Position numbers and translations under genes: made by a program | From: Alphaproteobacteria bacterium | GTDB taxonomy: Bacteria > Pseudomonadota > Alphaproteobacteria > UBA6615 | NCBI GenBank assembly: GCA_965267185.1 | Contig: OZ253937.1 | Location: 1,889,151 to 1,953,150, forward strand | DNA length: 64,000 bases | Direction: 5' to 3' | Part shown: one piece after another, positions 12,996-47,373 of the stretch | Layout: each line of letters begins with the position of its first letter | Position numbering within the stretch: the stretch's first letter is position 1 | Notes under the pieces: generated by a model | Database searches by the model: none | The model's input: only the letters and a program-made list of their open reading frames with translations | Told to the model about the DNA's origin: nothing

Positions 12996-13093
12996 CAACT
13001 ATTCCATGCGTTGCGTTGCGTTCTGGCTGGCAGCGCCAACCCCTAAACCTTCATCTTCAAACCGGCTGAGCTGCCCTTGCTCGGCCCCTTAAC

Positions 13094-25754: not shown

Positions 25755-27203
25755 CTACGCCTCGTCCGCTTTAGTTTGCCTTACTGCCTCAAGACCCGGC
25801 CAAGCGAGTCCGAGGCCAGCGAGAAACCACAAATATCGCTGGTAAAGTATTTCGGTACCGACCGATGAGGCGCCGACGACAACAATCGCGGCGGCTATGC
25901 CGATCAAGACGGGATCATTTACCCATCGGCCGTTTCGCCGCAGTAAGGCGAAAAGTGTTGCAAAGAAGAACGCCGCGAATAGAGACGCCCCAACGATACC
26001 CGTCTCGACAAGCAGCCAAAGCGGCGTCGCGTGAATTTGAATACCCCGCAACGGATCGTCCGAACCGCCGTGGCGCCACAAGAACCCCCCAAGACCGACC
26101 CCAAACACCGGGTTATCGCCCCAATCACTGATCGCCTGCTTCGCCGTTATCAACCGATGACTTAGGCCCTCATCGGACAAGACGTTGTCACGCGCCAGAT
26201 AGTGGTAGGGATCGCGAACGACCGGTGGAGGGGGGACAGGCTCAACATCTGCTCCGGCCGCGTTCGGCGCTTCGACCGTCTCCGAAGCTACAACAGGTGC
26301 GGTTTGTTTTTTGGACCATGTCAGCAAATCAACCGTGAGCAGGTTGATAATCAACGCCAGCAGGGCCGCGATCAGTATCTCGCGCAGGGGAATTTGTCGA
26401 AAAGCCAAGAGAACGGCCAAACCAGCCGCCAAACCAACCCAAGCGCTACGCGAACCAGCGTATGCGAACGCAAGCATCATGAGGGACAACCCGATCCGAA
26501 ACCAAAGCGGTCGGTAAACAGCTTGCGCTTTCATAAGTGGCAGCTGAATTACCACGATGGCGGCAATAGATATCGCAAACGCATTAGGATTCGACGCCAA
26601 CCCCTGCGGCCGGAAAAAGCGCTCCGCATCGGTGAGGTCCGGGAACAGTACGAATATCAAGAACGCAGCAAAACCAATCGCGCTGACAAGCCACCCCATC
26701 CCAACAAAAGTGGCCAATGCAGGCACCGCTAACAGGCGCCCCCGATCAGCTATCCATATTCCGGCGGCAAAATATCCAGTGAGGACCAGCCAGCCGACAC
26801 CCTTATTCAGATAGGCCCAACGAATCCATTCTCCTGTACTTAGGCGGCCGGTAATCAGCGAAACGGCCATCCACACCGTAAGGCCGGCAAGCCAAAGCCA
26901 CCATAGCTTAAGACGCGCCTCGGGCAGCTGGAGGCCAGACATTAGCCAGTCAGTCGCCACAACCACCAGCACCAGAACCAATACCGGATCGGAGATGGCA
27001 AACCTGACCGTTGAGCCAGCAAATTCCGACGGGCTCGCAATCATTACGCGTAACCCAGCATCGGTCGAGACGACATTGACGAGCACATGCAGCAGCGCCG
27101 CGAGACCGACTACAAGATAAACCCGAAAGTCGCGTAGTGCGCCGGTCGGATTGCCAATCGTTCCATACGGTTGGTCCACCATCGGCCCGCCGAAATTAGT
27201 CAT
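25755..27203 (-). CDS. O-antigen ligase/polymerase (Wzy_C-domain) family membrane protein
   Basis: 482 aa, ~10-12 TM segments, with a large periplasmic loop carrying the ...AYAGSRSAWVGLAAGL... and ...HATPLWLLVETGIVG... motifs typical of Wzy/WaaL-like proteins. It is the last gene of the polysaccharide operon. Confidence 0.65.
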   Translation of the reverse strand: MTNFGGPMVDQPYGTIGNPTGALRDFRVYLVVGLAALLHVLVNVVSTDAGLRVMIASPSEFAGSTVRFAISDPVLVLVLVVVATDWLMSGLQLPEARLKLWWLWLAGLTVWMAVSLITGRLSTGEWIRWAYLNKGVGWLVLTGYFAAGIWIADRGRLLAVPALATFVGMGWLVSAIGFAAFLIFVLFPDLTDAERFFRPQGLASNPNAFAISIAAIVVIQLPLMKAQAVYRPLWFRIGLSLMMLAFAYAGSRSAWVGLAAGLAVLLAFRQIPLREILIAALLALIINLLTVDLLTWSKKQTAPVVASETVEAPNAAGADVEPVPPPPVVRDPYHYLARDNVLSDEGLSHRLITAKQAISDWGDNPVFGVGLGGFLWRHGGSDDPLRGIQIHATPLWLLVETGIVGASLFAAFFFATLFALLRRNGRWVNDPVLIGIAAAIVVVGASSVGTEILYQRYLWFLAGLGLAWPGLEAVRQTKADEA

Positions 27204-29662
27204 GCCAATCTATCCGGTTCACTTGCCGGAACTGGGTTCCGCACATGACCGTCTGTCGCCCCTGCGCGACGATCCGCCAGACTTTCGTATACGCTCTCGT
27301 ATGAAGCGATGCAGCTCTCTAACCGAAACATTTCGTCTAAACGCAACTTGGCAGCGCTTCCCATGCGGGCCCGTTGCTCCGAACTCGTCCCCAATTCGAC
27401 GAGAGCGTTGGCCATGGCCTCTATATCGCGAACCTCGACGACCCGTCCGGTCACGTTGTTGAGAACGGCTTCCGGCGTTCCACCTGCCGCGGTGACGACA
27501 CTGGGCAAACCCGCCGCCATCGCCTCGAGAATGCTTTTTGGCAACCCCTCTTCGTGCGAAGCGAGAACTGCAATATCGCTTGCCTTGAGGATCATCGGAA
27601 CATCAGTGCGTTCGCCAATCCATCGAATACTGTCTTCAAGTCCCAGTTTGTGTGCCTGCCGGCGAAGTTTAGAGCCGATACCGTCATCGCGGCCGACAAT
27701 CAGCAACTGCCAACCGTCCGGTAAGTTTGCCGCCGCCACTGCAAACGCCTTCAGCAAGTCGCTGTGCCCCTTGTAGGGAATGAGATTCGCAACGCAGACA
27801 AACACGACTGCGTCATCGTTCAGCTCCAGATCATCACGCGCTTCCGACGGCTCATATTCCGCGTAGGCCTCGGGATTAACGCCGCTGTAAATCGTGCGAA
27901 GCCGATCGGCTGAAACCCCTTCGCCAGCAAGTTCTCTGGCAACGGCATTACTATTGGCGAGGACGATATTCATGTGGCGATGCAGCCATCGCTCAATCGT
28001 CGCGCTGAACCGTCGCCGGCGATGGTACCGGTTAAGGCTGCGGCGACTCATCACGCGACAATGTTGGCCCAACAACAAAGCGCATAGACCGCCGATAAAA
28101 TACGCTTCCGGCAGGAAAAAATGTACGATATCGGGCCGCGCGCGTCGCAGGAAGCGCACAATTCCCAAAAAAGAACGTATGAGCGACGGCGTGCTTCGAC
28201 CCACGGACACGGCGTGAGCAACGGGGATACCCCGCCGTTCCATTTCAGCGTCCAGCGGACCTGGGCCACGCGTGGTCACCACTGTTACGGCAAATCGACG
28301 CCGGTCGATCCTAGGTAGCACATCGAGCAAATGCTGCTCGGTGCCACCTATGGCCAACCGGGGAACAAACACGGCAACGCGCCGTTGTTCGCGAGCGAGG
28401 GCAACATCTACGCGCCAATCCGCCAACCGCGAAAACAGCTTGGCAAACTGCTCGGCTCGGCTGAGTCCGGCACCTACGGACCGAGGCAACGCTGCAATAA
28501 CACCATCAGCCGCCTTGATCGCCAACCACCGGGAGAGTTGGCCGGCTAGCTGCTCGACATCGTCGCTGGCAAAGCCGGCGTTACGCTCGCGGATCAAGTC
28601 GGGAGCCACACCCGACGGCAATCCGACAGCTAGAATGGGTCGGCGCGCTCCTAGATATTCGAATAGTTTGCCGGTTAGCACGCCAGGTTCGGACGCGCTG
28701 TTCCACTGCAATAAAAGCAGGATATCGGCTTTGGTTTGTAGCTGCGCCGATTCCATAAACGGCACTTCGGGGTGAACACCGACCTGATTTTCGAGGCCGT
28801 ATTGTGCGGCCAGCTGTCGAATACCGGGTAAAGTACGGCCATAAAACTCGATTTTGATTTTTAGGCCTTGGTCGCCCAGTGACTTTACCGCGGCAAATAA
28901 TGGTGCCGGATCCTGCCGGCCAGGATAGACGGTTCCGGTATAGACGATGTTCAATTCGGGCGACTCCGGCGGTGACTCAACGCTCGAATAGTCATCCGGG
29001 TCAAAGCCGTTGGGAATCACCGAAACCGGACAGTCGAATTTTTCCCGTAATCGATCGGCCAACGGTTCGGAAACTGTAACCAACCCAGCGGCTGTGGATA
29101 GTGTGCGACGCTCCAGCGGCACCTCAAGAGTGCGCCGCCATGTCGGCCAATCGGCGTAGTAATTATCGGTCCATAGATCGCGCAGCTCGCCGGCCCAGGG
29201 GACGTCCGCCACCCGCGCCAAGCGGCGTGCCACAATTAGCCCGGTGAACGGTGGCGCGCTGGCATAAATCATGTCCGGCCGCCAATCCGCTATCAAGCGC
29301 TTGCCGTCCCGAACGGCTTGGGGGTACCAGCCGATCTGTCCGTCAGGGATATTGAGTAGTGTCCGGTATAGCCGGACGACTTTTGCGAAGATCCCGGAAG
29401 GCGGCACCTCGCTTCGGCGGTAACGCCGCTGTTGCCTACCGAATAGGGCCAACGGCAGACCATTGATGTTCCACCACCCCGTGCGCGTGATGAATTCTTC
29501 CGGCACTTCCTGCGGCAGGGATTGCGGAAGCAGCTGTTGGCGTGCCGTCAGAACCCGCACCTCGTGGCCGGCCGCCAATAGTTCCTTCGCCAGCTTGCCC
29601 GCTCGTACTGCGCCGATCGCATTGAACGGAGGGAAGTAGAAAGACACGAGGAGAATTTTCAT
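27200..29662 (-). CDS. Bifunctional glycosyltransferase: two tandem GT4 (GT-B) domains
   Basis: The N-terminal half starts MKILLVSFYFPPFNAIGAVRAGKLAKEL.... The C-terminal half carries a second GT4 core with E..GLPKSILEAMAAGLPSVVT (EX7E-like). The start is at the internal Met, which has an AGGAGA SD. Confidence 0.8.
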   Translation of the reverse strand: MKILLVSFYFPPFNAIGAVRAGKLAKELLAAGHEVRVLTARQQLLPQSLPQEVPEEFITRTGWWNINGLPLALFGRQQRRYRRSEVPPSGIFAKVVRLYRTLLNIPDGQIGWYPQAVRDGKRLIADWRPDMIYASAPPFTGLIVARRLARVADVPWAGELRDLWTDNYYADWPTWRRTLEVPLERRTLSTAAGLVTVSEPLADRLREKFDCPVSVIPNGFDPDDYSSVESPPESPELNIVYTGTVYPGRQDPAPLFAAVKSLGDQGLKIKIEFYGRTLPGIRQLAAQYGLENQVGVHPEVPFMESAQLQTKADILLLLQWNSASEPGVLTGKLFEYLGARRPILAVGLPSGVAPDLIRERNAGFASDDVEQLAGQLSRWLAIKAADGVIAALPRSVGAGLSRAEQFAKLFSRLADWRVDVALAREQRRVAVFVPRLAIGGTEQHLLDVLPRIDRRRFAVTVVTTRGPGPLDAEMERRGIPVAHAVSVGRSTPSLIRSFLGIVRFLRRARPDIVHFFLPEAYFIGGLCALLLGQHCRVMSRRSLNRYHRRRRFSATIERWLHRHMNIVLANSNAVARELAGEGVSADRLRTIYSGVNPEAYAEYEPSEARDDLELNDDAVVFVCVANLIPYKGHSDLLKAFAVAAANLPDGWQLLIVGRDDGIGSKLRRQAHKLGLEDSIRWIGERTDVPMILKASDIAVLASHEEGLPKSILEAMAAGLPSVVTAAGGTPEAVLNNVTGRVVEVRDIEAMANALVELGTSSEQRARMGSAAKLRLDEMFRLESCIASYESVYESLADRRAGATDGHVRNPVPASEPDRLA

Positions 29663-29678
29663 AAGGCTCGCTTTGCGA

Positions 29679-31616
29679 TCACACCGAAAATTCGGCGCCA
29701 ACCTGTTCCGCCCATATGACTAAGTTGGCCCAGCGCCAAGGATGGGTCACCGAGGACGATCGGCCTGAGCGGTATTCCGACCAAAGCCGCCGTACCGCTT
29801 CTGAGTTCAAAGCCGGTATATTATCAAGCCGCCCACCCCCCAACACATCATCAAAGAAATCAGCGCTTTCCTGCATCCATTTCGATTCAGGCGTCACAAA
29901 GCCAACTTTGTCCCGGCGGTCGAGTATTGCATTGGGCACCACTCCGCGCAGCGCATTTCGCAGCACTGCTTTTGTTGTGCCGCCGCGGCCAATCAGATAG
30001 TCGTCCGGCAGCGCCGCCGCGGTTTCGACAAGCTTCGTTGTCAGAAACGGAACGCGCGATTCCAAGGACACTACCATCGAGTTGCGATCAACATGGCGCA
30101 ACAGAGCCGGCAAGCTCGTGCGGGTCAGCGTATTCGACAACAACGACCGAAATGTATTGTGGTCACCTGAAGCACTAGGATCGCTTATCGTCAGGCCACA
30201 GGCGCGAAACCAATCACCGTCTAACCATTGAGGCACTAGTTCTTCGCGAGCCACCCAGCGCGCGGAGTTACGCAAACCGCTGGGTAACAAGAAGGATCCT
30301 GCGCGCATAAGGTCGCGCGCTCGAGCACCGCGTGGCGCGTTAGCCGCTATGTGCCACAACAACCTCGCCGCCGATGCCAGACGGCCAGAACGAACCAGGT
30401 CCGCAAACCGGGCAGCCTGGAATACCGGGTAGCCACCGAACAACTCGTCGGCTCCTTGGCCATCGAGGATGACCTTGAACCCCGCCTGGGCTGCAGATCG
30501 ATAAACACGAGCTTGGGCGTAGATACTCGTACCGGCAAACGGCAATTCCTGGCAGCCAACGAGGTCGATCAGATCGTCGGCAAATTCCGCTTCACCAACA
30601 GTCACCTTGTGAGAGACGACCGATGCGGCATCACCCGCTATATCGATCCATCGTTCCTCGCTCGGCGCGGGGTCGTCCGCAATGTAACTAAACGCATGAA
30701 GCTCGCCTGCGAATTGCTCCCGTACTGCACAGACGATAGCCGAGGAGTCGATGCCGCCCGACAAGGCCACCGCAATAGGTACATCGCTACGCAACCTCAA
30801 ACGTACGCTCTCGGCAAATGTTTCGCGTAACTGCTCCGCGGCGTCATCCAGCGAGATTGACCGCACGGCAGGCTCCGGCAACTGCCAGTATCTTTGCGGC
30901 GATACGTCGGATGGACGGTTCAGATCGATTTTCAAACTGTGCGCCGGTAGAAGAGACTTCACATCGGCAAACATGGTCGCCGTACCGTCGTCGCACTGCC
31001 CAAATCGTAAATAGCGATAAAGCTCCTCCGGAGCGATACGCCGCGAAACACCAGGGAGGGTCAGTAGCGGGCGTATTTCAGACGCGAAGGCAAATCCGCT
31101 ACCCGATAGCGTAACGTAATAAAGCGGCTTAATGCCGAACGGATCGCGCGCCAAAAACAGCTCGTTGGCGACAGTGTCGAGAATCGCAAAAGCAAACATA
31201 CCGTCGAGCCGTAATAATGCCGCTTCGCCCCATCGGGCATAGGCGCGTAGTAGTACTTCGGTATCGCAGTTCGACACGAAGTGATCGCCCTCTGCTGCCA
31301 ACTCCGCCCGAAGCTCTAGAAAGTTGTAGATTTCCCCATTGTAGATGATGGCATAGCGGCCATCCGGCGTTGCCATCGGCTGCCACCCGGCCGGGCTCGG
31401 ATCCAAGATCGACAAGCGGCGGTGGACAAGCCACACATCCATCGTTTCCCCGCCCTCCGGCAAAGTCCGGCTCGGCGATAGCGGCATCTCCGGGCGCCAG
31501 GCCAGATATCCCATATCGTCGGGTCCACGATGCTCGAGGCTATCGCTCAGCGCAGCGACGACATCTGTCGTCGGGGGCGCACCATTCCCGGGAATGATTC
31601 CGGCGATACCGCACAT
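29679..31616 (-). CDS. Asparagine synthetase (glutamine-hydrolysing) family amidotransferase (AsnB/WbpS-like)
   Basis: Starts MCGIAGI (class II GATase nucleophile Cys2), has the PP-loop SGGIDSS, 645 aa. It is embedded in the polysaccharide operon. Confidence 0.85.
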   Translation of the reverse strand: MCGIAGIIPGNGAPPTTDVVAALSDSLEHRGPDDMGYLAWRPEMPLSPSRTLPEGGETMDVWLVHRRLSILDPSPAGWQPMATPDGRYAIIYNGEIYNFLELRAELAAEGDHFVSNCDTEVLLRAYARWGEAALLRLDGMFAFAILDTVANELFLARDPFGIKPLYYVTLSGSGFAFASEIRPLLTLPGVSRRIAPEELYRYLRFGQCDDGTATMFADVKSLLPAHSLKIDLNRPSDVSPQRYWQLPEPAVRSISLDDAAEQLRETFAESVRLRLRSDVPIAVALSGGIDSSAIVCAVREQFAGELHAFSYIADDPAPSEERWIDIAGDAASVVSHKVTVGEAEFADDLIDLVGCQELPFAGTSIYAQARVYRSAAQAGFKVILDGQGADELFGGYPVFQAARFADLVRSGRLASAARLLWHIAANAPRGARARDLMRAGSFLLPSGLRNSARWVAREELVPQWLDGDWFRACGLTISDPSASGDHNTFRSLLSNTLTRTSLPALLRHVDRNSMVVSLESRVPFLTTKLVETAAALPDDYLIGRGGTTKAVLRNALRGVVPNAILDRRDKVGFVTPESKWMQESADFFDDVLGGGRLDNIPALNSEAVRRLWSEYRSGRSSSVTHPWRWANLVIWAEQVGAEFSV

Positions 31617-31619
31617 GTC

Positions 31620-32663
31620 TCACCCACCGTGCCAAAGAGTGGGCCGCAGGTAAGCCGCCGCGTTTCCGATCGAACTGTAGCCGCGGAGGAAATCGTTCGT
31701 CCATTTCACGCCGAGACGCCTGAGCGATCGCCAGTCGCGACCGGACGTGGACGCCAAACTGGCCCAACTAGCCGGACTGCCTTGTGGCGGTACTTCGTAT
31801 CCGTAATGCTCCGCGAGATCGCGTAGCCTAACGATGGGCAAATCAAAACGGGCTGCGTACGCTGGGTTGACCGACAGTCCGGCCATAAATGCCGCCGCCG
31901 CTCGATCTTCGTCAGAGACCGCAGCCTCGTTTGCGTCGCCCATAGTACCGTACGCGCTGTAACGCCAACTATCGAGGCGTGGACGTTCTGCACGATAGGT
32001 GTTTTCGCTGTACAGGCTGGCGATATCGAGATGTGCAGCGCTATGCCCCAATCGCTCCAACAACCGCTGAATTTCGGCTTGGGTATCATCGACGAGGTCT
32101 TCATAGCGGACGGTTAGAAAACGCGGATGTTCACGTAGCGCCCACGCGGCACTTACGTCGATTAACCACGTAGACGCAGCCAGGTAAAACCCAAACCCGC
32201 GGCGGCGCAACGAGCGATAGACGTGTAGCGGGTCCCGCACGATGTGAACAAAGACCGATTGCGGGAAGGTCTCAAGAAATGCCGCCGCGCTGTGGATATT
32301 CTCCGGCGTTTTCTCAAAGAACAACGTCGCCGCCTTACCGCGATGCTCTGCGTAATGGTGAAAAAGTTTGCCGGAGAAATCGGCGAAGCTTGCGCTTTCC
32401 TGGCGCAGCTTGGCGACCGTTTGTCGATCGAGACCGTATTCCGCGAATTCCCAGTCACCGAACCGGTCTCCAAACATGGCGTAGCACGCTGGCGACGATG
32501 ACCGGCCAAAATCGCGTCGATAGTTCGCACGAAACCGACGGTAATGATCCAGCGGCGAAAATAAGTGAAGCTCCGGCCCACATACGGCGAACGGCAAACT
32601 ATCCAGCAAATCAGCTAGATAGGTGCTCCCCGAACTCGGCGCGTTACCGATCGCGACAATCAT
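31620..32663 (-). CDS. Sulfotransferase-family protein (PAPS-dependent)
   Basis: An N-terminal P-loop-like 5'-PSB motif (VAIGNAPSSGSTYLADLL) and a 3'-PB-like motif (FVHIVRDPLHVYRSL; RDP...S). 347 aa, soluble. No specific substrate can be inferred. Confidence 0.55.
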   Translation of the reverse strand: MIVAIGNAPSSGSTYLADLLDSLPFAVCGPELHLFSPLDHYRRFRANYRRDFGRSSSPACYAMFGDRFGDWEFAEYGLDRQTVAKLRQESASFADFSGKLFHHYAEHRGKAATLFFEKTPENIHSAAAFLETFPQSVFVHIVRDPLHVYRSLRRRGFGFYLAASTWLIDVSAAWALREHPRFLTVRYEDLVDDTQAEIQRLLERLGHSAAHLDIASLYSENTYRAERPRLDSWRYSAYGTMGDANEAAVSDEDRAAAAFMAGLSVNPAYAARFDLPIVRLRDLAEHYGYEVPPQGSPASWASLASTSGRDWRSLRRLGVKWTNDFLRGYSSIGNAAAYLRPTLWHGG

Positions 32664-33982
32664 GCAACCGGCTCCGGTTTGCTGAGCCGCAACAGCTCAC
32701 CCCACCCGATACTTTCGCGCCGGCACAGATCGATCAACATTGCCAGCTGACGAAGCGTCGCAAGTGCGGAGAATAGGCCAACGCCGATGAGCACATTCTC
32801 GAGTAGTGCACCGGCCGCCAAACCGACGAGCGCAGCCGAAAAGTAAGCGGCCTGATAAACCAGAAAGGCGCGCTGCCGGCCGCGAACGAAAAACAATTGT
32901 GAAATCGGGGCCACTAAAAACATCGTCAAATATAACGGTGCGAGAAGGCTGGCCATCAAACCGGCAAGCCGCCACTGATCACCGAAGACGGGCGCAAACA
33001 GCCAAGGAGAGAGAACGAGAACACCGGCATACAAGGGAACCCCGGCACGGATCAACCCACGTAAACTGTCGACCGTGACAGACTTCGCGTTGCCCGACGC
33101 CATGAATTCCTGATTGGCGCGGGGATAATAGATTTGAGCGAGCGCCGCCGTCGCCATAGCAGCCGGCCAGCCAGTGGCGCGCACGGCGAGCCCGAACTGT
33201 CCCGTCAAGGCTTCGCTGTAGAATACGCCGATGACGATCACCGGCAATTCGAGAGCAGCCACGTTAAGCAGCGCCGCCGGTACGTCATAATACGGGAACT
33301 TTTTGTGCCGCGTCGCCATTGCCGACGCTCGGCCGACAGTGCGGCCCGCCTGCAACCGGAACTGGCGAACCAAGGCGCCGCCTTCGACAATCAAAAACGT
33401 CAAGCCAGCAACCGCGATACCGGCAAGATGCCCAACCGCGAGCGCCACACCACCGGCTAAAGCACTGAACGACGCCGCTATTTGCACAGCTGCCGCAACT
33501 GTCTGCTGCCCGATGCGCGCCGTCGCGATGACACCCGTATGGTGGCGCCGGCTCGCCCAATAGTTCAATGCCTGATACATCCCGCGCGCCGCGACTGCAG
33601 CCGGCAGAACCCACAACGCCGCGCCCAAGTTCTCGACCCCCAACCACAGCGCGATTTGCTCCCCTGCAACAAGAACGAGCACGACAAGTATCACCGCTAT
33701 GGCAAAACTCGCGGCCCAAGCCACCTGGACCAAGCTGGCCGCTCCCCGCAGCGTTCGTGGCAAGACGATTGCGAGTTCGTAGCGCAAGCACGCACAGGTG
33801 CCGATCAGGTTGGCCAGCGCCAGATAAACGACGAACACGCCAACATCGGCAGGGGTGTAGAGCCGCGTTAAAACCGGCCACGCCGCCAAAGCCACGATCT
33901 GTCCGACAAGCGTCGCGCCGCCCAACCGCATCACACCGGAAAACAGCGGCTGGCTTGTCACGGTATCTGACTTTATTGACAC
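32660..33982 (-). CDS. Polysaccharide biosynthesis protein / Wzx-type oligosaccharide flippase (MOP superfamily)
   Basis: 440 aa with ~12 predicted TM helices. It is the first gene of a co-directional polysaccharide operon, overlapping the next gene by 4 nt. Confidence 0.7.
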   Translation of the reverse strand: MSIKSDTVTSQPLFSGVMRLGGATLVGQIVALAAWPVLTRLYTPADVGVFVVYLALANLIGTCACLRYELAIVLPRTLRGAASLVQVAWAASFAIAVILVVLVLVAGEQIALWLGVENLGAALWVLPAAVAARGMYQALNYWASRRHHTGVIATARIGQQTVAAAVQIAASFSALAGGVALAVGHLAGIAVAGLTFLIVEGGALVRQFRLQAGRTVGRASAMATRHKKFPYYDVPAALLNVAALELPVIVIGVFYSEALTGQFGLAVRATGWPAAMATAALAQIYYPRANQEFMASGNAKSVTVDSLRGLIRAGVPLYAGVLVLSPWLFAPVFGDQWRLAGLMASLLAPLYLTMFLVAPISQLFFVRGRQRAFLVYQAAYFSAALVGLAAGALLENVLIGVGLFSALATLRQLAMLIDLCRRESIGWGELLRLSKPEPVA

Positions 33983-40466: not shown

Positions 40467-41393
40467 ATGAATATCTACCTGCCCATTGCTGAAATGTCGG
40501 TCGATGTTTTCCTGATCCTTGGATTGGGGGGCGGCATCGGATTTCTGTCCGGGTTATTCGGCGTCGGTGGCGGGTTCTTGATGACACCACTACTAATTTT
40601 CATCGGCATACCACCCGCGGTGGCCGTAGCCAGCGAGGCAAACCAAATCGTCGCTGCGTCGGTCTCTGGTGCGCTCGCACATATGCGGCGCGGTAACGTC
40701 GATATCAAAATGGGCCTGATCCTGACCGCTGGAGGCTTTGCGGGATCCGGCGTTGGGGTGTTGATTTTCACGCTGCTGCGCCAACTCGGGCAGGTCGAAC
40801 TGCTGATCGCGCTAAGTTACGTGGTATTTCTCGGTGCCATCGGTTTGTTGATGCTGATCGAAAGCGGCCGGACCATGCTGCGGCACCGGGCTGGCACGGC
40901 AACCAGAGGCAAGCTGCACCAGCATACATGGCTGCACGGACTACCCCTGAAAATGCGGTTTCGCCGCTCGCGCCTCTACATCAGCGCGCTCCTGCCGATC
41001 GGTATCGGTTTCTTCGTCGGTATTCTGGCGGCCATCATGGGTGTCGGGGGCGGATTCATCATGGTGCCGGCGATGATTTACCTGCTCGGAATGCCGACCG
41101 CCGTCGTTGTCGGCACTTCTTTATTCCAGATCATTTTTGTCACCGCCAACGTAACCTTCTTGCAAGCGACCACTAATCAGACCGTCGATATCGTGCTGGC
41201 GCTATTGCTGCTCACCGGCGCCGTGATTGGCGCCCAGTTGGGAACGAAGGCGGGCGGCTTGTTGCGCGGCGAACAACTGCGCGGTCTGCTGGCGCTTATC
41301 GTTCTCGGCGTCTGCGCCAAGATTGCCTACGATCTCGTATCGACCCCGTTTGATATCTTCTCGATCAGCGAAATCTCAGGATTTGGCGGATGA
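40467..41393 (+). CDS. TauE/SafE-family (DUF81) sulfite/anion exporter
   Basis: 308 aa with duplicated 4-TM halves, each carrying a GGGxxxxP-like motif (GVGGGFLMTPLL and GVGGGFIMVPAM). Confidence 0.8.
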   Translation: MNIYLPIAEMSVDVFLILGLGGGIGFLSGLFGVGGGFLMTPLLIFIGIPPAVAVASEANQIVAASVSGALAHMRRGNVDIKMGLILTAGGFAGSGVGVLIFTLLRQLGQVELLIALSYVVFLGAIGLLMLIESGRTMLRHRAGTATRGKLHQHTWLHGLPLKMRFRRSRLYISALLPIGIGFFVGILAAIMGVGGGFIMVPAMIYLLGMPTAVVVGTSLFQIIFVTANVTFLQATTNQTVDIVLALLLLTGAVIGAQLGTKAGGLLRGEQLRGLLALIVLGVCAKIAYDLVSTPFDIFSISEISGFGG

Positions 41394-42157
41394 GAAACCT
41401 TCATCACACAATATTGGCTATGCTCCTGTTTGTGGGAGTCGCGGCGGCACCGGCACAAGGTCAAACACCAACCCTCGCGTCGTCGCCTTTGGTAGCAGAC
41501 CTCAGCGAAGATCTCATCGCAATCACAACCGGATTTACCGGCACCGAAGTCTTGCTGTTCGGAGCGACCGTGGGTTCCGGCGAAATCATTGTTGTCGTCA
41601 AGGCGCCGGAAAGCCAGGTCGTTGTGCGCCGAAAAGAACGGGTCGCCGGTGTGTGGATCAACGCCGATAGCCTAACTTTCGACAAAGTGCCCGGATTTTA
41701 TCATGTCGCCGCTTCGCAGCCTCTGACCGATCTATTGCCGGAAGCGACCTTGAAAAGTGAACAAATCGGTGCCGAGAATTTGTCGTTGGAGTCTGTATCG
41801 CCAACGTCGGCCGCAGAGTTCGCTCTATTTACCGAAGCATTGATCCGTAACAAGAAGAGAACAGATCTCTTCAATGAACAGCTTGGCGAGATCAAGTTCC
41901 TCGGTGACCGGCTATTCCGTACTCAGGTACAACTCCCGTCAAACGTACCGACGGGCGCTTACACAGCAACGGTATATCTGGTGGACAAGGGAGAGATCAT
42001 CGACCGCACCGACACGCTGCTGCAAGTTCGAAAATCGGGCTTCGAAGCCAAAGTGTTCGAGTTCGCCAATCAAAATGCGGCGATCTACGGTATCATTGCC
42101 ATTCTTATTGCATTGGCGGCGGGATGGTTTGCCGGCATTGTCTTCCGAAACGTCTGA
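41390..42157 (+). CDS. TIGR02186-like alphaproteobacterial membrane-anchored protein (conserved partner of DUF81)
   Basis: Signal peptide plus a C-terminal TM (IYGIIAILIALAAGWFAGIVF). It overlaps tauE by 4 nt, indicating translational coupling. The family name is recalled from memory. Confidence 0.5.
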   Translation: MRNLHHTILAMLLFVGVAAAPAQGQTPTLASSPLVADLSEDLIAITTGFTGTEVLLFGATVGSGEIIVVVKAPESQVVVRRKERVAGVWINADSLTFDKVPGFYHVAASQPLTDLLPEATLKSEQIGAENLSLESVSPTSAAEFALFTEALIRNKKRTDLFNEQLGEIKFLGDRLFRTQVQLPSNVPTGAYTATVYLVDKGEIIDRTDTLLQVRKSGFEAKVFEFANQNAAIYGIIAILIALAAGWFAGIVFRNV

Positions 42158-42164
42158 CGCCGTT

Positions 42165-42695
42165 ATGACCGATCAAACGACAACCGAACCAGCAAATGCC
42201 GCGCCGGACGACCGGCGCCCCGAAGTGAGCCAACCCAATGTTTTTCTTGTGGTGGCGGACAACACGCGGGAGATGCAAGTGGCGCTGCGTTTCGCAAGTC
42301 TTCGCGCGAAACGCACTGGCGGCCGCGTCGGTCTACTGCGTGTTGTACGCAAAGCCGACTTTCAGCATTGGGCGGCGATCGGCAACCTGATGCGCGAAGA
42401 AGCGCGCGATGAGGCCGAACAGTTGCTGCAAGAACATGCGGCAACGGTCACCGAGTTAACCGGCGGCGAGATGCCGATCCTCTACATCAAAGAGGGCGAC
42501 ACCAAGTCGGCTCTTCTCGAGCTGATCGATGAAGACGCGCAGATTCGTATTCTGGTTCTCGCCGCCGCCACGGGGACACGCGGGCCGGGACCCCTTATTA
42601 CGTTCCTGATGAAAAAGATAATCGGCAAGCTGCGCATCCCGGTCACGATTGTGCCCGGAGGACTCACCAACAATCAGATCGATACGCTGACTTAA
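42165..42695 (+). CDS. Universal stress protein (UspA-domain)
   Basis: VFLVVADNTREMQVALRFA...ILVLAAATGTRG is a UspA-like Rossmann fold. The start is chosen at MTDQTT; the longer ORF-track form overlaps the upstream gene. Confidence 0.6.
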   Translation: MTDQTTTEPANAAPDDRRPEVSQPNVFLVVADNTREMQVALRFASLRAKRTGGRVGLLRVVRKADFQHWAAIGNLMREEARDEAEQLLQEHAATVTELTGGEMPILYIKEGDTKSALLELIDEDAQIRILVLAAATGTRGPGPLITFLMKKIIGKLRIPVTIVPGGLTNNQIDTLT

Positions 42696-42707
42696 GCCCT
42701 AACCCGA

Positions 42708-45653
42708 TTGCGTGCCTTCATGCCCGACCAAACGAGAAGCGTAAACTCGCCCGAGATTATCGATACCTCGCCGCCGGTTGCCGACGAGATCAAAACCACC
42801 ACGTGTTACATGTGCGCCTGCCGGTGCGGCATCAACGTCCACCTCCGCGACGGGGCGATCCGCTACATCGAGGGCAACCGCGACCATCCGGTCAACAAAG
42901 GCGTTTTGTGCGCCAAAGGATCGGCCGGCATCATGCAGCACTATTCGCCGGCCCGGCTGTCCAAGCCGTTGAAGCGGGTGGGTCCGCGCGGCTCCAACGA
43001 GTTCGTTGAGATCGAGTGGGAGGAAGCCTTGGCGACCGCCACGGCATGGCTCACCGAAGTTCGCCGCTCAGACCCACGCAAGCTGGCTTTTTTCACCGGA
43101 CGCGATCAAAGCCAAGGGTTGACCGGGTTCTGGGCGAGCCAGTTCGGCACGCCTAACTACGCGGCCCATGGCGGCTTTTGCTCCGTTAATATGGCCGCCG
43201 CCGGGCTCTACACTATCGGCGGATCGTTCTGGGAGTTCGGCGAGCCGGACTGGGAACGAACGCGTTACTTCTTGATGTTCGGCGTTGCCGAGGATCACGA
43301 TTCCAACCCCATCAAAGCCGGGCTCGGCAAACTAAAAGGAAAAGGCGACGCCAAATTCGTCTCCGTCAACCCGGTGCGCACCGGCTACTCCGCCGTCGCC
43401 GACGAATGGATTGGTGTACGGCCCGGAACGGATGGCTTATTCGTTCTGGCGCTGGTTCACGAGCTTCTGCGGGCCGGACAAGTCGATCTCGCGTATCTGG
43501 TGCGCTACACCAACGCGCCATGGCTGATCTATGAAGCACCGGGCGAGGCTCATGATGGGCTGTTCGTGCGCGATGCCGACGGCAATCCCCTGGCGGTCGA
43601 CAAAAACACCGGAAAACTCGTCAGCGCGTTGGCCGCCGACATTGCCCCTGCGCTGCAAGGTAAATTCGATCTAGCTGAACTCGACGGTGTCGATAGCGAT
43701 ATCAGCGGGCTGGCTGTGCCGGCTTTCCAGCAGTTACTCGACCGCTATAGCGATCCGCAATACGCACCGGAGGCGGTTGCCGCGCAAACTGGCGTCGACG
43801 CCGATACGATCCGCCGCATTGCGGCAGAGCTCGCCCACGCCGCCTTTCAGCAGACGATCGAGATCGACACGCCGTGGACCGACTGGGCTGGCCGCCGTCA
43901 TGACAAAATGATCGGCCGGCCGGTGGCGATGCACGCAATGCGCGGCATCTCCGCCCATTCGAATGGCTTCCAGACCTGCCGGGCGATCCACATGTTGCAG
44001 ATGCTGCTTGGCAGCATCGATTGCCCCGGCGGTTTTCGCTACAAGCCGCCCTTTCCAAGGCCGGCGCCACCCGGACCGAAGCCAGCGGGCCGCGGTGAGC
44101 AGATCGCCGCCGAAACGCCGATGCCCGGACCGCCGCTCGGTTTCGTCACCGGTCCCGAAGATCTTTTGGTCGAAGCCGACGGACGGCCTTCGCGTATCGA
44201 CAAGGCCTTTTCGTGGGAGTACCCGCTGGCCGCCCACGGCATGATGCATCTGGTGATCCGCAACGCGTGGGCGCGCGATCCCTACCCCATCGATGTGCTG
44301 TTCATGTTCATGGCCAACATGAGCTGGAACTCGGCAATGAACACCGCCGAGACCATCGAAATGTTGACCGACATCGATCCCGACACCGGCGAATACCGCA
44401 TCCCCAAGATTATCTACTCGGATGCATTTTCCTCCGAGATGGTGCCTTACGCCGACCTCATCCTGCCCGACACCACCTATCTGGAGCGGTGGGACTGCAT
44501 CAGCTTGCTCGACCGGCCGATCTGCGATGCCGACGGACCGGCGGACTCGATCCGCCAACCGGTTGTTGCTCCTGACCGCGACGTGCGGCCCTTCCAGGAT
44601 GTGCTGATCGATCTCGGCGCACGCCTGGGCCTCCCCGCGTTTGTCGATGAGGCCGGCAGCGCCCGTTATCCCGGCGGCTATCCCGACTACATCGCCAACC
44701 ATGAACGCACGCCAGGTATCGGTCCGCTGGCCGGATGGCGCGGCGCCGACGGAACATCGCACGGCCGCGGCGAAGCAAATCCTGACCAGCTATCCCGCTA
44801 TATTGAGAACGGTTGCTTCTGGCGCGACGAGTTGGCGCCCGATCAGCGCTACTTCAAGTTCGCCAACCAAAGCTACTTGCAGTATTCGGCCGACATGGGC
44901 TGGATTCCCGATGCCAATCAAATAATCCTGCAGCTCTACAGCGAACCGCTGCAGAAGTTTCGCCTGGCCGCGCAGGGACACGGGCCCCACCAGCCGCCCG
45001 GCTCGCACCGCGAGCGGCTCGAGACCTTCTTCGATCCGTTGCCGATCTGGTACGCACCCTTCGAGGAGGAATTCAGCACGGACGAATCCTATCCGATACA
45101 CGCGCTCACCCAGCGGCCGATGGCGATGTACCATTCGTGGGGGTCGCAAAACGCTTGGCTGCGGCAAATCCATGGCTGGAACCGGCTCTTTGTTCATGCT
45201 GACACAGCCCGCGACGCGGGACTCGCCGATGACGACTGGGCGTGGATCGAGAGCCCCTATGGTCGCGTCAAGGCGCAGATCAAATGCATGACGGGCTGCA
45301 ACCCAGCGACCGTGTGGACGTGGAACGCGATCGGTAAGCGCCGCGGTAGTTGGAATCTCGACGACAACGCACCGGAATCACGTCGCGGCTTCCTCCTCAA
45401 TCATCTGATCACCGATCTGCTGCCACCGAAAAACGGCCATCGCTACGCCAATGCCGATCCGATCACCGGACAGGCGGCCTGGTTCGACTTGAAGGTGCGC
45501 TTGAGCAAAGCGGAACCCGGCGAAGCGGAAGAAAGCGAACCTGTATTCCCGGTCCTGGAAGAATTACCCAACACCAAGAAACGCCCCGCAATCTTACGCT
45601 ACGGTGAACGCTTCCTGCCTACCGGCGACTGGCGGCGGAGGCGGGCGTCATGA
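42708..45653 (+). CDS. soeA: Molybdopterin (bis-MGD) oxidoreductase catalytic subunit without a Tat signal; SoeA-like sulfite dehydrogenase candidate
   Basis: 981 aa. N-terminal 4Fe-4S motif CYMCACRCG...C in a DMSO-reductase-family scaffold. No twin-arginine leader. Followed by the Fe-S and membrane-anchor subunits. Confidence 0.55.
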   Translation: MRAFMPDQTRSVNSPEIIDTSPPVADEIKTTTCYMCACRCGINVHLRDGAIRYIEGNRDHPVNKGVLCAKGSAGIMQHYSPARLSKPLKRVGPRGSNEFVEIEWEEALATATAWLTEVRRSDPRKLAFFTGRDQSQGLTGFWASQFGTPNYAAHGGFCSVNMAAAGLYTIGGSFWEFGEPDWERTRYFLMFGVAEDHDSNPIKAGLGKLKGKGDAKFVSVNPVRTGYSAVADEWIGVRPGTDGLFVLALVHELLRAGQVDLAYLVRYTNAPWLIYEAPGEAHDGLFVRDADGNPLAVDKNTGKLVSALAADIAPALQGKFDLAELDGVDSDISGLAVPAFQQLLDRYSDPQYAPEAVAAQTGVDADTIRRIAAELAHAAFQQTIEIDTPWTDWAGRRHDKMIGRPVAMHAMRGISAHSNGFQTCRAIHMLQMLLGSIDCPGGFRYKPPFPRPAPPGPKPAGRGEQIAAETPMPGPPLGFVTGPEDLLVEADGRPSRIDKAFSWEYPLAAHGMMHLVIRNAWARDPYPIDVLFMFMANMSWNSAMNTAETIEMLTDIDPDTGEYRIPKIIYSDAFSSEMVPYADLILPDTTYLERWDCISLLDRPICDADGPADSIRQPVVAPDRDVRPFQDVLIDLGARLGLPAFVDEAGSARYPGGYPDYIANHERTPGIGPLAGWRGADGTSHGRGEANPDQLSRYIENGCFWRDELAPDQRYFKFANQSYLQYSADMGWIPDANQIILQLYSEPLQKFRLAAQGHGPHQPPGSHRERLETFFDPLPIWYAPFEEEFSTDESYPIHALTQRPMAMYHSWGSQNAWLRQIHGWNRLFVHADTARDAGLADDDWAWIESPYGRVKAQIKCMTGCNPATVWTWNAIGKRRGSWNLDDNAPESRRGFLLNHLITDLLPPKNGHRYANADPITGQAAWFDLKVRLSKAEPGEAEESEPVFPVLEELPNTKKRPAILRYGERFLPTGDWRRRRAS

Positions 45654-46408
45654 CGAGCCTGCCCAAAACGCCACCGGAGAAAAAGCTCGGTCTGGTGATC
45701 GACCTGGATACCTGCGTCGGTTGCCACGCTTGCGCGGTGAATTGCAAGGAATGGAACACGGGCGGCCATTCAGCCCCCCTCACCGATCTCGAACCTTATG
45801 GCGAAGATCCTCACGGTGTCTGGTTCAATCGGATCCACACGTTCGAAGCCGGCGAAGGAGCGCAGGGGCGCACCGTGCATTTTCCCAAGAGCTGCCTGCA
45901 CTGCGACGAGCCGGCCTGCGTGACCGTATGCCCCACCGGCGCGTCCTATAAGCGCGAAGAAGACGGCATCGTTTTGGTCAATGCCGACACCTGCATCGGC
46001 TGCAAACTCTGTTCATGGGCATGCCCCTACGGCGCACGCGAGTATGACTACACCGATGGGGTGATGAAGAAATGCACCCTGTGCATCGACCGCATCTACA
46101 ACGAGAACCTCGAAGAAGAGGACCGGGTACCCGCCTGCGTATCCACCTGCCCCGCCTCGGCCCGTCATTTTGGCGACCTGGGCGATCCGAACTCCGAGGT
46201 GTCGCAGCTGGTGCGCGAGCGCGGTGGCTATGACCTGATGCCCGAGATGGAGATGCAGCCGGTCAATAAATATCTGCCGCCGCGGCCAACAAAAACAACA
46301 GCCGGCGACACCGGCGCGCCCGCTGCCTTGCCCGGTGATGCGTCTGAAACCGTCGATACAACGGGCCACGGTTTCCTGGCCTGGGTCGACCGGGCGCTGT
46401 CGCGTTAG
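45650..46408 (+). CDS. soeB: 4x[4Fe-4S] ferredoxin-type subunit (DmsB/PsrB/SoeB-like)
   Basis: Four Cys clusters (CVGCHACAVNC; CLHCDEPACVTVCP; CIGCKLCSWACP; CTLCIDR...C). Overlaps the A subunit by 4 nt. Confidence 0.6.
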   Translation: MTSLPKTPPEKKLGLVIDLDTCVGCHACAVNCKEWNTGGHSAPLTDLEPYGEDPHGVWFNRIHTFEAGEGAQGRTVHFPKSCLHCDEPACVTVCPTGASYKREEDGIVLVNADTCIGCKLCSWACPYGAREYDYTDGVMKKCTLCIDRIYNENLEEEDRVPACVSTCPASARHFGDLGDPNSEVSQLVRERGGYDLMPEMEMQPVNKYLPPRPTKTTAGDTGAPAALPGDASETVDTTGHGFLAWVDRALSR

Positions 46409-46425
46409 CATCGGGTTCGTTCGCC

Positions 46426-47373
46426 GTGCATCCCGCCTACTCGGTCATTTTTTTCACAACAGCGTCCGGCGCAGGTTATGGGCTGTTGGTCTGGCTCGCT
46501 GTTGGGACCATTTTTTTCGACCTGCCGTCCGATCGCTGGTTCGGATTTACCTCCTTCGCCGTCGCGCTAGTCCTGATTACTTTTGGGCTACTCTCATCGA
46601 CCTTCCACCTGGGTCATCCGGAACGGGCCTGGCGGGGACTGACCCAGTGGCGGTCGTCGTGGCTATCGCGCGAAGGCGTCGCAGCGGTCCTCACTTACAT
46701 TCCCGCTGGGCTTGCCGCGATCGGCTGGGTGTTCCTGACCCGCAACGATGGCGTGTGGGCCTGGCTGATGGCAGCCGCCGGGATACTGGCAATCGTCACC
46801 GTGTATTGCACTGCGATGATCTATCAAAGTCTGCAGGCCATACCGCGCTGGAACACGCCTTGGGTGACGCTGGTCTATCTCGGATTCGCCCTGGCCAGTG
46901 GAGCGTTGCTGTTCCATCTCGGGGTCCGCGCCTTCGGTCTCGATCTCGTTGGCAGCGGTTGGGCCGCGGCGGCTCTGACGGCCGCTGCCTGGATCGTAAA
47001 ACTGATCTACTGGAACAGAATCGACCGCGCTCCCGCTAGGTCGACAGCGGAGACGGCCACCGGATTGGGACATCTCGGTAGGGTTCGTCTATTCGAGGCG
47101 CCGCATACCGGCGACAATTACCTGATGCGCGAAATGGGCTACAAGGTCGCCCGCAAGCACGCAACACGACTGCGCATCATCGCGCTCATCCTGGGTGGCG
47201 CGATACCAGTGATTCTGGCCGTGGCGGCCACTCAACTATCTGACCCGGCCGCGGTGCTGGTGGGATTGCTGGCTGTTTTGTCGGCAGGTGCGGGATTGCT
47301 CGTCGAACGCTGGCTGTTTTTTGCCGAGGCGGTTCACGCGGTGTCGCTCTATTACGGCATGGACTCCGCTTAG
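46426..47373 (+). CDS. soeC: DmsC/NrfD-type membrane anchor subunit (SoeC-like)
   Basis: 315 aa with ~8 TM segments. HPERAWRGLTQWRSSWLSREG is a typical DmsC-family loop. Confidence 0.6.
   Translation: MHPAYSVIFFTTASGAGYGLLVWLAVGTIFFDLPSDRWFGFTSFAVALVLITFGLLSSTFHLGHPERAWRGLTQWRSSWLSREGVAAVLTYIPAGLAAIGWVFLTRNDGVWAWLMAAAGILAIVTVYCTAMIYQSLQAIPRWNTPWVTLVYLGFALASGALLFHLGVRAFGLDLVGSGWAAAALTAAAWIVKLIYWNRIDRAPARSTAETATGLGHLGRVRLFEAPHTGDNYLMREMGYKVARKHATRLRIIALILGGAIPVILAVAATQLSDPAAVLVGLLAVLSAGAGLLVERWLFFAEAVHAVSLYYGMDSA

Follow-up and report, generated by a model that had tools for sequence, protein, structure and literature searches.

Sulfated surface glycans are still rare among bacteria, and few of the bacterial polysaccharide sulfotransferases have been characterized (PMC11625862, PMC11641403). 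Sulfotransferase-bearing Wzx/Wzy clusters are already known for synechan and from Vibrio and Cobetia, and it is with these that the five-gene locus described here is to be compared. In the xss (synechan) cluster of Synechocystis sp. PCC 6803, the sulfotransferase genes lie, as in our locus, beside those for glycosyltransferases, the flippase and the polymerase within a Wzx/Wzy cluster, with some parts encoded elsewhere (in the case of xss, the OPX gene) (PMC8205485). In contrast to our locus, xss has regulators of its own, codes for a PCP, eight glycosyltransferases and two sulfotransferases, and shows no AsnB among the cluster genes quoted (PMC8205485); the locus under study has only five genes, with a single sulfotransferase-fold protein of what we term the Ser-loop clade and, in addition, an AsnB-type enzyme. 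Likewise, Vibrio sp. KMM 8419 and Cobetia marina carry sulfotransferase genes inside proteobacterial surface-glycan loci for sulfated CPS or O-antigen (PMC11641403, PMC11766843). In the former, a carbohydrate sulfotransferase adjoins Wzx in the O-antigen operon and copies of cysNDC are present in the cluster, as they are beside a gammaproteobacterial homologue that we discuss below; a published analysis regards the joint presence of PAPS-synthesis genes and a sulfotransferase in one cluster as the hallmark of a locus that makes sulfated polysaccharide (PMC11641403). Unlike our locus, which has no cys genes around it, the Vibrio locus comprises 80 genes, includes an ABC transporter for the CPS, and is described with 0 mentions of an amidotransferase (PMC11641403).

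Beyond these clusters, a soluble sulfotransferase acts on the uronic acids of the N-linked glycan in Halobacterium; in Halobacterium salinarum, Agl30 and Agl31 (one of them soluble) modify a lipid-assembled glycan by sulfating its uronic acids, which is the very step that we propose below to precede flipping (PMC11980604). The likeness is one of described role; these enzymes belong to archaeal N-glycosylation on dolichol phosphate and have an unrelated gene context. Alphaproteobacteria themselves provide further cases of PAPS-dependent sulfation of surface or secreted glycoconjugates in the rhizobial NodH and NoeE, LpsS of S. meliloti and KpsS of M. loti; to our knowledge, none of these has been reported with an AsnB partner. 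Conversely, the AsnB homologues WbpS of P. aeruginosa O6 and WbtH of F. tularensis, to which we liken the AsnB-type enzyme of our locus by description, lie in Wzx/Wzy O-antigen clusters and are assigned to residues of the GalNAcA-amide type, and we know of no sulfotransferase in those clusters. What is new relative to the known clusters, as judged from sequence, is a Ser-loop clade of predicted sulfotransferases that lacks the usual catalytic Lys/Arg and whose habitual partner is an asparagine-synthase-like enzyme.

A compact five-gene locus

The locus spans positions 33982-25755 on the minus strand of the window, by which we mean the whole 64-kb stretch of DNA analyzed, and its limits are exactly those assigned in a prior sequence-only reading of this stretch. 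An Alph_Pro_TM domain and the names of relatives assign the DNA to the Alphaproteobacteria. It contains five co-directional open reading frames, here in gene order:

32660..33982, minus strand: MOP-family (Wzx-type) oligosaccharide flippase; 440 aa from a GTG start; PF13440 Polysacc_synt_3
31620..32663, minus strand: soluble sulfotransferase-fold protein with an atypical P-S-S-G-S-T PAPS loop; 347 aa; PF13469
29679..31616, minus strand: AsnB-type glutamine-dependent amidotransferase; 645 aa; GATase_7 and Asn_synthase
27200..29662, minus strand: glycosyltransferase formed by the fusion of two GT4 modules; 820 aa when started at the ATG (29662), 833 aa (29701-27200) when read from the upstream TTG at 29701
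25755..27203, minus strand: Wzy_C-family polytopic membrane protein, polymerase or ligase; 482 aa; PF04932

The successive junctions are a 4-nt overlap, a 3-nt gap, a 16-nt gap and a 4-nt overlap, in agreement with the tight packing that the sequence-only reading had described, and its family assignments hold for all five proteins, each of which passes its Pfam gathering score. The 820-aa length that it gave for the double GT4 is likewise recovered, and the same call is made in two relatives (L037 and L042). Within the block, promoter-like and terminator-like sites are not in excess of the shuffled expectation, which fits a single operon; the five genes most likely constitute one.

The flippase is recovered by the Polysacc_synt_3 profile (3.8e-13, 49.8 bits, cutoff 23) and weakly by the MOP flippase model NF007773, and shows 11 hydrophobic peaks; it is 40% identical to the same-position flippase of a distant alphaproteobacterial locus (L001) and 70-78% identical to those of closer relatives (L035-L038). 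The 645-aa protein scores 245 bits against Asn_synthase, 148 bits against GATase_7 and 415.6 bits against TIGR01536 (cutoff 267.1); it combines a class II GATase domain, with the N-terminal cysteine nucleophile in MCGIAG, and an Asn_synthase domain whose PP-loop, SGGIDSS, conforms to SGGxDS. The sequence of an AsnB-type enzyme does not reveal its substrate; from its position in the operon and the conserved adjacency to the sulfotransferase-fold protein in glycan clusters, we predict that it amidates a uronic acid of the glycan in the manner of WbpS. In two of these clusters (L019 and L039), WbpB/WbpE-like enzymes from pathways to uronic-acid sugars are encoded as well. The double GT4 has two stretches each of PF13439 (Glyco_transf_4), PF13579 (Glyco_trans_4_4) and PF13692 (Glyco_trans_1_4), amounting to two complete GT-B modules that each pair a GT4 N-domain with a C-domain of the Glycos_transf_1 type. 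Such a fusion is not unusual in itself, WbdA of E. coli O9a being one. Its C-terminal module displays the EX7E motif as EGLPKSILE; the N-terminal module has a variant E-x9-E spacing (SEPGVLTGKLFE), which makes its predicted activity less certain. This N-terminal half finds no sequence match in the PDB and is 50-52% identical to its partners in L001, L021 and L039.

To survey the context, we scanned with Pfam the longest non-overlapping open reading frames of at least 180 aa, which cover most of the 64-kb window. Among them there is no initiating phosphoglycosyl transferase, no chain-length regulator (PCP), no OPX protein or other exporter, and no gene for PAPS synthesis (cys) or sugar nucleotides; the initiating transferase, PCP and OPX are also absent from the syntenic L001/L002. 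Hence, the sequence-only reading was right in regarding the initiating, chain-length and export functions as missing; their genes must lie at other sites, which is the usual arrangement for O-antigen clusters. We also considered an exopolysaccharide system of the XrtA/PEP-CTERM type and rejected it because all the NCBIfam scores are far below the cutoffs: 338 versus 817 bits for the TIGR03108 amidotransferase, and 170 versus 409 and 88 versus 442 bits for the glycosyltransferase models TIGR03088 and TIGR04063. No exosortase was found among the scanned open reading frames of the window.

The sulfotransferase-fold protein and its Ser-loop clade

The sequence-only reading had taken the 347-aa protein for a soluble enzyme with PAPS-binding 5'-PSB- and 3'-PB-like motifs, and had suggested profile and structural comparisons, both of which it passes. 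It matches PF13469 (Sulfotransfer_3; 3.6e-23, 83.4 bits, cutoff 27) and PF00685 (Sulfotransfer_1; 25.7 bits, cutoff 22). Its AF2 model (pLDDT 92.5, pTM 0.92) retrieved 20 PDB structures with Foldseek at E <= 0.001, all of them sulfotransferases; the best matches, all PAPS sulfotransferases, are led by TPST2 (1.3e-8) and the CurM ST domain (1.8e-8), with the OLS ST domain, Stf9 and Stf1 also recovered. This accords with the alpha/beta sulfotransferase fold built on a central parallel sheet. There is no hydrophobic segment, so the label of a soluble protein stands.

TPST2 and the CurM and OLS ST domains (PDB 3AP1/3AP3, 4GBM and 4GOX) are the closest in both structural and profile comparisons, and they have in common with the clade the loop P-x-S-G-[ST]-T, a Glu that follows the helix of this loop, [DE]K[ST]P, the R...S motif for the 3'-phosphate, and [RY]YE[DQ]L. 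They differ in having an Arg in the loop where the clade has a Ser, in acting on tyrosine or a beta-hydroxyacyl-ACP rather than on glycans, and in lacking the helical C-terminal region of about 140 aa that is conserved in the clade. The invariant residues are G6, S10, G12, S13, E31, K118, R143, S151 and Y187. Of these, R143 and S151 lie in the 3'-phosphate strand-turn-helix IVRDPLHVYRS and align to the VR..P....S of the CurM ST domain and TPST2, E31 to the Glu of PEL (CurM ST) and EET (TPST2), and K118 to the Lys of DKSP/NKDP, in the [DE]K[ST]P motif common to both; we take the TPST2 residues aligned to E31 and K118 to be the catalytic ones of its published structure. Y187 lies within RYEDL, the motif of the adenine-stacking Tyr. 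In the loop itself, G-N-A-P-S10-S-G-S-T, an ungapped alignment places Ser10 where the CurM ST domain, the OLS ST domain and TPST2 have their Arg and SULT1A1 has its Lys. Thus, of the two PAPS-binding motifs originally proposed, the 3'-PB-like one stands, with R143 and S151 invariant, whereas the 5'-PSB-like one, P-S-S-G-S-T, is without the catalytic Lys/Arg. The PAPS loop therefore has to be called atypical, and that the 347-aa protein is a PAPS-type enzyme capable of sulfate transfer is a prediction, not something read off this motif. A recent review counts the missing residue among the features that define sulfotransferases (PMC11625862). The loop of the rhizobial NodH is R-x-G (PMC11625862), so that, unlike the Ser-loop clade, it keeps the basic residue; against the NoeE model, the 347-aa protein gives a weak local match of 24 bits (cutoff 500).

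The clade comprises about 470 clusters at 50% identity. The loop Ser is found in all 47 aligned members, in all of the top 150 representatives with an N-terminus, and in all family members with a readable loop from the word-index search (E up to 5e-24). Neither Lys nor Arg appears in the readable loops of the 120 word-index matches listed and of 119 further representatives save three outgroups (two with PRSGTT and one with PNSGTT), the outgroup Sulfotransfer_3 proteins having retained PRSGTT. In the searches made, clade members bear only the names 'sulfotransferase' or 'hypothetical protein', and none of the 120 homologues listed is named by its source as a protein of Synechocystis or another cyanobacterium. 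Six long fusion homologues that we checked are joined to a glycosyltransferase domain (P0252), TPR repeats or regions of no assigned kind. Our literature searches returned no paper on a Ser-type PSB loop and none in which an asparagine synthase accompanies a sulfotransferase within a glycan cluster.

Conserved gene order and the link to PAPS synthesis

A distant alphaproteobacterial MAG (L001/L002) has the full gene order of the locus, as flippase, sulfotransferase-fold protein, AsnB, (epimerase-like protein), double GT4 and Wzy_C protein, with identities of 37-52%; in closer relatives, the order is conserved at 67-79% identity. The trio of the flippase, the sulfotransferase-fold protein and AsnB extends further, to MAGs of Desulfobacterales, Calditrichaceae and Nitrospirota, and the latter two genes occur together in Gammaproteobacteria beside no recognized flippase. 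Of the 25 species-level genomes compared, 12, from several bacterial lineages, have an AsnB gene at most 700 nt from that for the sulfotransferase homologue; in 17 of the 25 loci the distance is at most 10 kb, leaving about a third with no AsnB within 10 kb. Hence, the flippase, the sulfotransferase-fold protein and AsnB form a conserved unit, which is a new finding of this analysis.

One gammaproteobacterial MAG (L019) has cysQ, cysD, cysN, cysC (the APS kinase), a flippase, a Ser-type sulfotransferase homologue and AsnB in a contiguous, co-directional series. This placement of PAPS-synthesis genes directly upstream of a flippase and a clade member links the clade to PAPS; among about 30 distinct loci, it is the sole case of PAPS genes beside the homologue.

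Proposed pathway and its alternatives

Taking these observations together, we consider it probable that the operon builds a short, modified oligosaccharide on undecaprenyl phosphate, which is moved to the periplasmic side for a surface glycan, either O-antigen-like or an exopolysaccharide. Briefly, we advance the following order of steps. An initiating transferase encoded elsewhere would prime the lipid carrier, to which the two GT4 modules would add two sugars to give a unit of trisaccharide size. In the cytoplasm, the AsnB-type enzyme would use ATP and glutamine to turn a carboxylate group, most likely on a uronic acid, into a carboxamide, and the soluble sulfotransferase-fold enzyme would transfer sulfate from PAPS onto the unit. 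The dedicated MOP flippase would then translocate the modified unit, which the Wzy_C protein might either polymerize or ligate to an acceptor. A bolder version, which we regard as unlikely, is that the Ser-loop enzyme and AsnB act as a two-enzyme unit of several lineages that makes a sulfated uronamide or, going further, an N-sulfated amide, either of which would be a modification so far undescribed in bacterial glycans, with catalysis proceeding without the canonical Lys/Arg of the PAPS loop and with a dedicated, co-evolving Wzx accepting the resulting unit.

The last step admits a different outcome, in which the Wzy_C protein is a WaaL- or PglL-like ligase and the same operon makes a single oligosaccharide, sulfated and amidated, that caps lipid A-core or proteins in place of a polymer of repeat units. 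The sequence-only reading had called the protein Wzy_C polymerase/ligase-like; its membership of the family is upheld (PF04932, 4.2e-12, 46.5 bits, cutoff 31.7; 13 hydrophobic peaks), but an identity as a polymerase is not established, as Wzy_C also covers ligases and O-oligosaccharyltransferases. PF04932 is named 'O-antigen ligase', the label that sources give to distant homologues, and a module with just two GT domains, and with no chain-length regulator or exporter either among the scanned open reading frames of the window or in the syntenic L001/L002, would suit a cap. In enterobacterial O-antigen clusters, though, wzz, the initiating transferase and waaL are typically kept elsewhere, so these absences do not discriminate between a polymerase and a ligase. 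Against a ligase, an operon that holds both Wzx and a Wzy_C protein follows the classical Wzx/Wzy arrangement, and neither phmmer nor profile searches detected any PDB match, the solved WaaL included. The protein is 37% identical to its same-position counterpart in L001, has no NCBIfam match, retrieves only 11 proteins in a word-index search, and has an AF2 model (pLDDT 53) too low in confidence for a fold search. Thus, from sequence and model it cannot at present be told apart from a ligase, yet on balance we hold a cap to be unlikely, while granting it a considerable minority share.

The loss of the loop Lys/Arg and the habitual AsnB neighbor raise another alternative to PAPS-dependent O-sulfation, namely that the sulfotransferase-fold protein acts together with AsnB on a single site (e.g., by N-sulfation of the new amide), uses another 3'-phospho-nucleotide donor, or is a non-catalytic binding subunit. 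The invariance of the Ser at the catalytic position throughout a clade whose outgroups keep PRSGTT speaks for this, as does the adjacency of AsnB in 12 of the 25 genomes. However, invariance extends also to the Arg and Ser of the 3'-phosphate motif, to the second Lys, to the catalytic Glu and to the Tyr of the adenine-stacking motif, and this favors an active PAPS-type site; in L019, CysQ/D/N/C are encoded immediately upstream; none of the six long fusion proteins joins the sulfotransferase-fold domain to AsnB; and in about a third of the loci no AsnB lies within 10 kb. We therefore deem departures from ordinary O-sulfation quite improbable. That the five genes are a chance neighborhood or a decayed remnant with no joint product was already disfavored and is highly improbable: beyond the initiating and export functions missing from the window we found nothing in its support, and all five open reading frames are intact with conserved catalytic motifs and, as noted above, hold their order in both distant and close relatives.

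The locus is a compact five-gene example of a module found in many uncultured lineages, which belong to the Alpha-, Beta- and Gammaproteobacteria, Desulfobacterales, Nitrospirota, Calditrichaceae and Flavobacteriales. As such, it would offer a tractable route to the acceptor of an unstudied sulfotransferase clade, to how this clade works without the loop Lys/Arg, and to whether the amidation and sulfation of uronic acids are coupled. Should the chemistry prove to be ordinary O-sulfation, its practical value would be that of a small, new group of enzymes with which to engineer sulfated glycans.

Finally, we considered recent horizontal transfer of the locus and set it aside: its GC content (0.57-0.62) is that of the window, and there is no flanking tRNA gene or integrase. 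Megablast of the locus found no match among plasmids. Following the suggestion of the sequence-only reading that the variability of the locus be checked in related genomes, we did observe that its surroundings differ between relatives.

Layout and predicted functions of the five-gene block

The segment from 25755 to 33982 is filled exactly by five co-directional minus-strand ORFs, as the sequence-only reading had proposed, and the family assignments made there hold, with all five products exceeding the Pfam gathering score:

33982-32660, minus: MOP/Wzx flippase (440 aa, GTG start; Polysacc_synt_3)
32663-31620, minus: sulfotransferase-like protein (347 aa; Sulfotransfer_3 and additionally Sulfotransfer_1)
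31616-29679, minus: AsnB-type amidotransferase (645 aa; GATase_7 and Asn_synthase)
29701 or 29662 to 27200, minus: double GT4 glycosyltransferase (833 aa from a TTG; 820 aa from an ATG, beginning MKILLV)
27203-25755, minus: Wzy_C protein (482 aa; Wzy_C)

The 820-aa length originally given for the double GT4 is also that of the gene calls in two relatives, and this start leaves a 16-nt gap downstream of the AsnB stop codon; of the other gene pairs, the first and the last overlap by 4 nt and the second is separated by 3 nt. Promoter-like and terminator-like matches within the block are at or under shuffled expectation, which is consistent with a single transcription unit.

The AsnB protein scores above the cutoff of the NCBIfam model TIGR01536 (asparagine synthase, glutamine-hydrolysing) and contains a Cys nucleophile at its N-terminus (MCGIAG) as well as an SGGIDSS PP-loop; judging by these motifs, it is expected to be an active amidotransferase that depends on glutamine and uses ATP. 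WbpS and WbtH, AsnB-type enzymes of O-antigen clusters, are assigned to the amidation of a uronic-acid carboxylate, and by analogy the present enzyme may do likewise. This would fit two loci with sulfotransferase homologues in other genomes, L019 and L039, since both carry genes for uronic-acid-type sugars. In the double GT4, Pfam detects complete N- and C-domains of the GT4 type twice, with a canonical EX7E in the C-terminal module and a variant spacing in the N-terminal one; there is nothing special about such a fusion. The final product is polytopic and has the Wzy_C domain, so that this much of its initial description as Wzy stands, but its identity as a polymerase is not established over that as a ligase; it could be either, and sequence, profile and structure prediction gave nothing that decides between them. 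The claimed absence of an initiating transferase, a chain-length regulator (co-polymerase) and an exporter was borne out among the scanned ORFs of the window, and these are likewise absent from a syntenic module in a distant alphaproteobacterial MAG (L001/L002). Enterobacterial O-antigen clusters normally lack the same three functions. An XrtA/PEP-CTERM system was rejected, its models matching far under their cutoffs.

A sulfotransferase clade with an altered loop

The 347-aa protein was correctly recognized as sulfotransferase-like, and both checks suggested for it, by HMM and by fold, bear this out: its Sulfotransfer_3 match (83.4 bits) is far over the threshold of 27, and an AlphaFold2 model built from 47 homologues (pLDDT 92.5, pTM 0.92) finds its best PDB matches exclusively in PAPS-dependent sulfotransferases, namely TPST2, the CurM and OLS sulfotransferase domains and the mycobacterial Stf9 and Stf1. 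The TM-scores stay moderate (0.43-0.60) on account of a helical region of about 140 residues at the C-terminus, which the family conserves. Using the family alignment together with a profile search of the PDB, we could map several invariant positions: R143 and S151 to the 3'-phosphate-binding strand-turn-helix; K118 to the lysine of [DE]K[ST]P; E31 to the Glu following the loop helix in the CurM sulfotransferase (PEL) and TPST2 (EET); and Y187-E188 to the [RY]YE[DQ]L motif. Of the two PAPS-binding motifs initially suggested, the 3'-phosphate site is retained, whereas the 5' loop (G-N-A-P-S-S-G-S-T) departs from the expected pattern: gap-free alignment places Ser10 where the CurM and OLS sulfotransferases and TPST2 have Arg and SULT1A1 has Lys. 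This serine is invariant in 47 of 47 aligned members, in all listed family members (E-value up to 5e-24) with a readable loop, and in all of the top-150 representatives that include the N-terminus; PRSGTT persists in the more remote Sulfotransfer_3 proteins listed with them. For a recent review, a sulfotransferase is defined in practice by its fold, the Ser of the PB helix and a Lys or Arg in the loop (PMC11625862); the clade therefore lacks one of these defining features.

An exhaustive profile search places about 470 clusters (50% identity) in the clade at E-values of 1e-30 or better, making it a small family within the Sulfotransfer_3 superfamily (21,162 clusters at E-values up to 1e-3), and all its matches in the GTDB species set are MAGs. 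Among the homologues checked for fusions, one also contains a glycosyltransferase domain, and no fusion to AsnB was seen. Some members have an N-terminal TPR domain or lie downstream of a TPR protein, and others are extended at the C-terminus by 400-700 aa without a Pfam match; the proteins P0108 and P0264, and L004 at 1-1354, are examples of these variants.

Genomic associations and the proposed pathway

The L001/L002 module, whose sulfotransferase is 45% identical, keeps the gene order from flippase through sulfotransferase, AsnB and double GT4 (792 aa there) to Wzy_C, with an additional epimerase-like gene between AsnB and the GT4 and a second AsnB after Wzy_C. In closer relatives (68-77% identity) the flippase-sulfotransferase-AsnB-820-aa GT4-Wzy_C arrangement recurs in different surroundings, so that the suggested check for variability among relatives comes out positive for the genomic context of the locus. 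In one (L035), a methyltransferase, an epimerase, an MBOAT protein and a MarR regulator are encoded upstream; in another (L041; Wzy_C protein 71% identical), phage-type Rad52/DUF968 and Sipho_Gp157 genes (3992-5580) follow immediately downstream, and there the module may be part of a prophage or adjoin one. Across 25 species-level loci, from lineages including Desulfobacterales, Calditrichaceae, Nitrospirota, Gammaproteobacteria and Flavobacteriales, the sulfotransferase has an AsnB homologue no more than 700 nt away in 12 and no more than 10 kb away in 17, and a MOP flippase is often directly upstream. The best conserved partner is the N-terminal GT4 module, at 50-52% identity in one alpha- and one betaproteobacterial MAG. 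In L039, the gene that comes right after the sulfotransferase homologue encodes a 690-aa heparinase II/III-like protein (11111-13183); the cluster around them includes WbpB/WbpD/WbpE/WbpI-like genes, two copies of AsnB and HisH/HisF-like genes.

Wzx/Wzy or capsule clusters that include sulfotransferases have been described from Synechocystis (synechan), Vibrio sp. KMM 8419 and Cobetia marina; hence, this kind of cluster is already known. What is new is its compact five-gene form, the uncharacterised clade with an invariant Ser replacing the catalytic loop Lys/Arg, and the habitual pairing of this clade with AsnB and a flippase across several bacterial lineages; no paper in the literature searched combines the three. 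The module offers glycobiology and sulfotransferase enzymology a sound lead that can be tested, rather than a surprise on the scale of a new system.

We advance the following as the probable mode of action. A priming transferase encoded elsewhere would load undecaprenyl phosphate, and the two GT4 modules would lengthen the unit to about three sugars. In the cytoplasm, AsnB would amidate a carboxylate and the soluble sulfotransferase would add PAPS-derived sulfate; we place both steps before flipping because both enzymes are soluble and need cytoplasmic cofactors. The co-conserved Wzx would then flip the modified unit for polymerisation or ligation by the Wzy_C protein, with sulfate and amide predicted in the glycan product. 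As precedent, Agl30 and Agl31 sulfate uronic acids of the lipid-assembled N-glycan of Halobacterium (PMC11980604).

A ligase-type end step, to which we assign a minor but real share of the probability, overlaps this pathway except in its last reaction, the Wzy_C domain being compatible with either outcome. Non-canonical chemistry by the Ser-loop enzyme would account for the missing Lys/Arg, but appears improbable: PAPS-dependent sulfation remains the leading reading despite the lost residue mainly on account of L019, a large co-directional glycan cluster of a gammaproteobacterial MAG (JASFHH010000006.1, 1237-19759). Its first genes encode a WbpB-like oxidoreductase, a WbpE-like DegT aminotransferase, CysQ, CysD, CysN and CysC (APS kinase), followed by a MOP flippase, a sulfotransferase of the P-S-S-G-S-T clade, AsnB, HisH- and HisF-like proteins, a PP-loop protein, two glycosyltransferases and a second AsnB. 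A published analysis regards the co-occurrence of PAPS-synthesis genes with a sulfotransferase in one cluster as a hallmark of sulfated polysaccharide synthesis (PMC11641403). This PAPS-synthesis and PAP-recycling set directly before the flippase and sulfotransferase was seen in one locus only; the 64-kb window itself has no cys genes. L019 would be a good model locus for the clade. That the five genes form a meaningless neighbourhood is very improbable set beside the repeated gene order.

Host lineage and other features of the window

Genes of ordinary metabolism flank the block, one for an M24 peptidase and, in divergent orientation, those for an SDR and an enoyl-CoA hydratase. The window also encodes RpoB, EF-Tu, ribosomal protein L1 and an Alph_Pro_TM protein, and it is therefore alphaproteobacterial chromosomal DNA. 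The exact module proteins occur once in the public protein collection, and ribosomal protein L1 (9652-10365) and several other host proteins are singletons at 90% identity among 15 billion proteins; the host seems to represent a poorly sampled alphaproteobacterial lineage. Towards the window end (60782-63603, minus), the gene for a single GT4 (351 aa) is directly followed by one for a second AsnB-type amidotransferase (592 aa; TIGR01536, 417 bits), and the pair seems to mark where a further glycan locus begins or ends; close by is a gene for a PagL lipid A 3-O-deacylase (58858-59433). The stretch 50001-51000 has a GC of 0.48 against about 0.59 elsewhere and is mostly intergenic with short ORFs only; an Rfam scan of it returned no family at gathering score, and a 254-aa ORF extending into it has no Pfam match. 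On the plus strand, 40467-47373 encodes a TauE/SafE-type exporter, an Alph_Pro_TM protein, a 981-aa molybdopterin oxidoreductase, a 4Fe-4S subunit and a DmsC-like anchor, a run that is a putative respiratory enzyme of the DMSO-reductase family.
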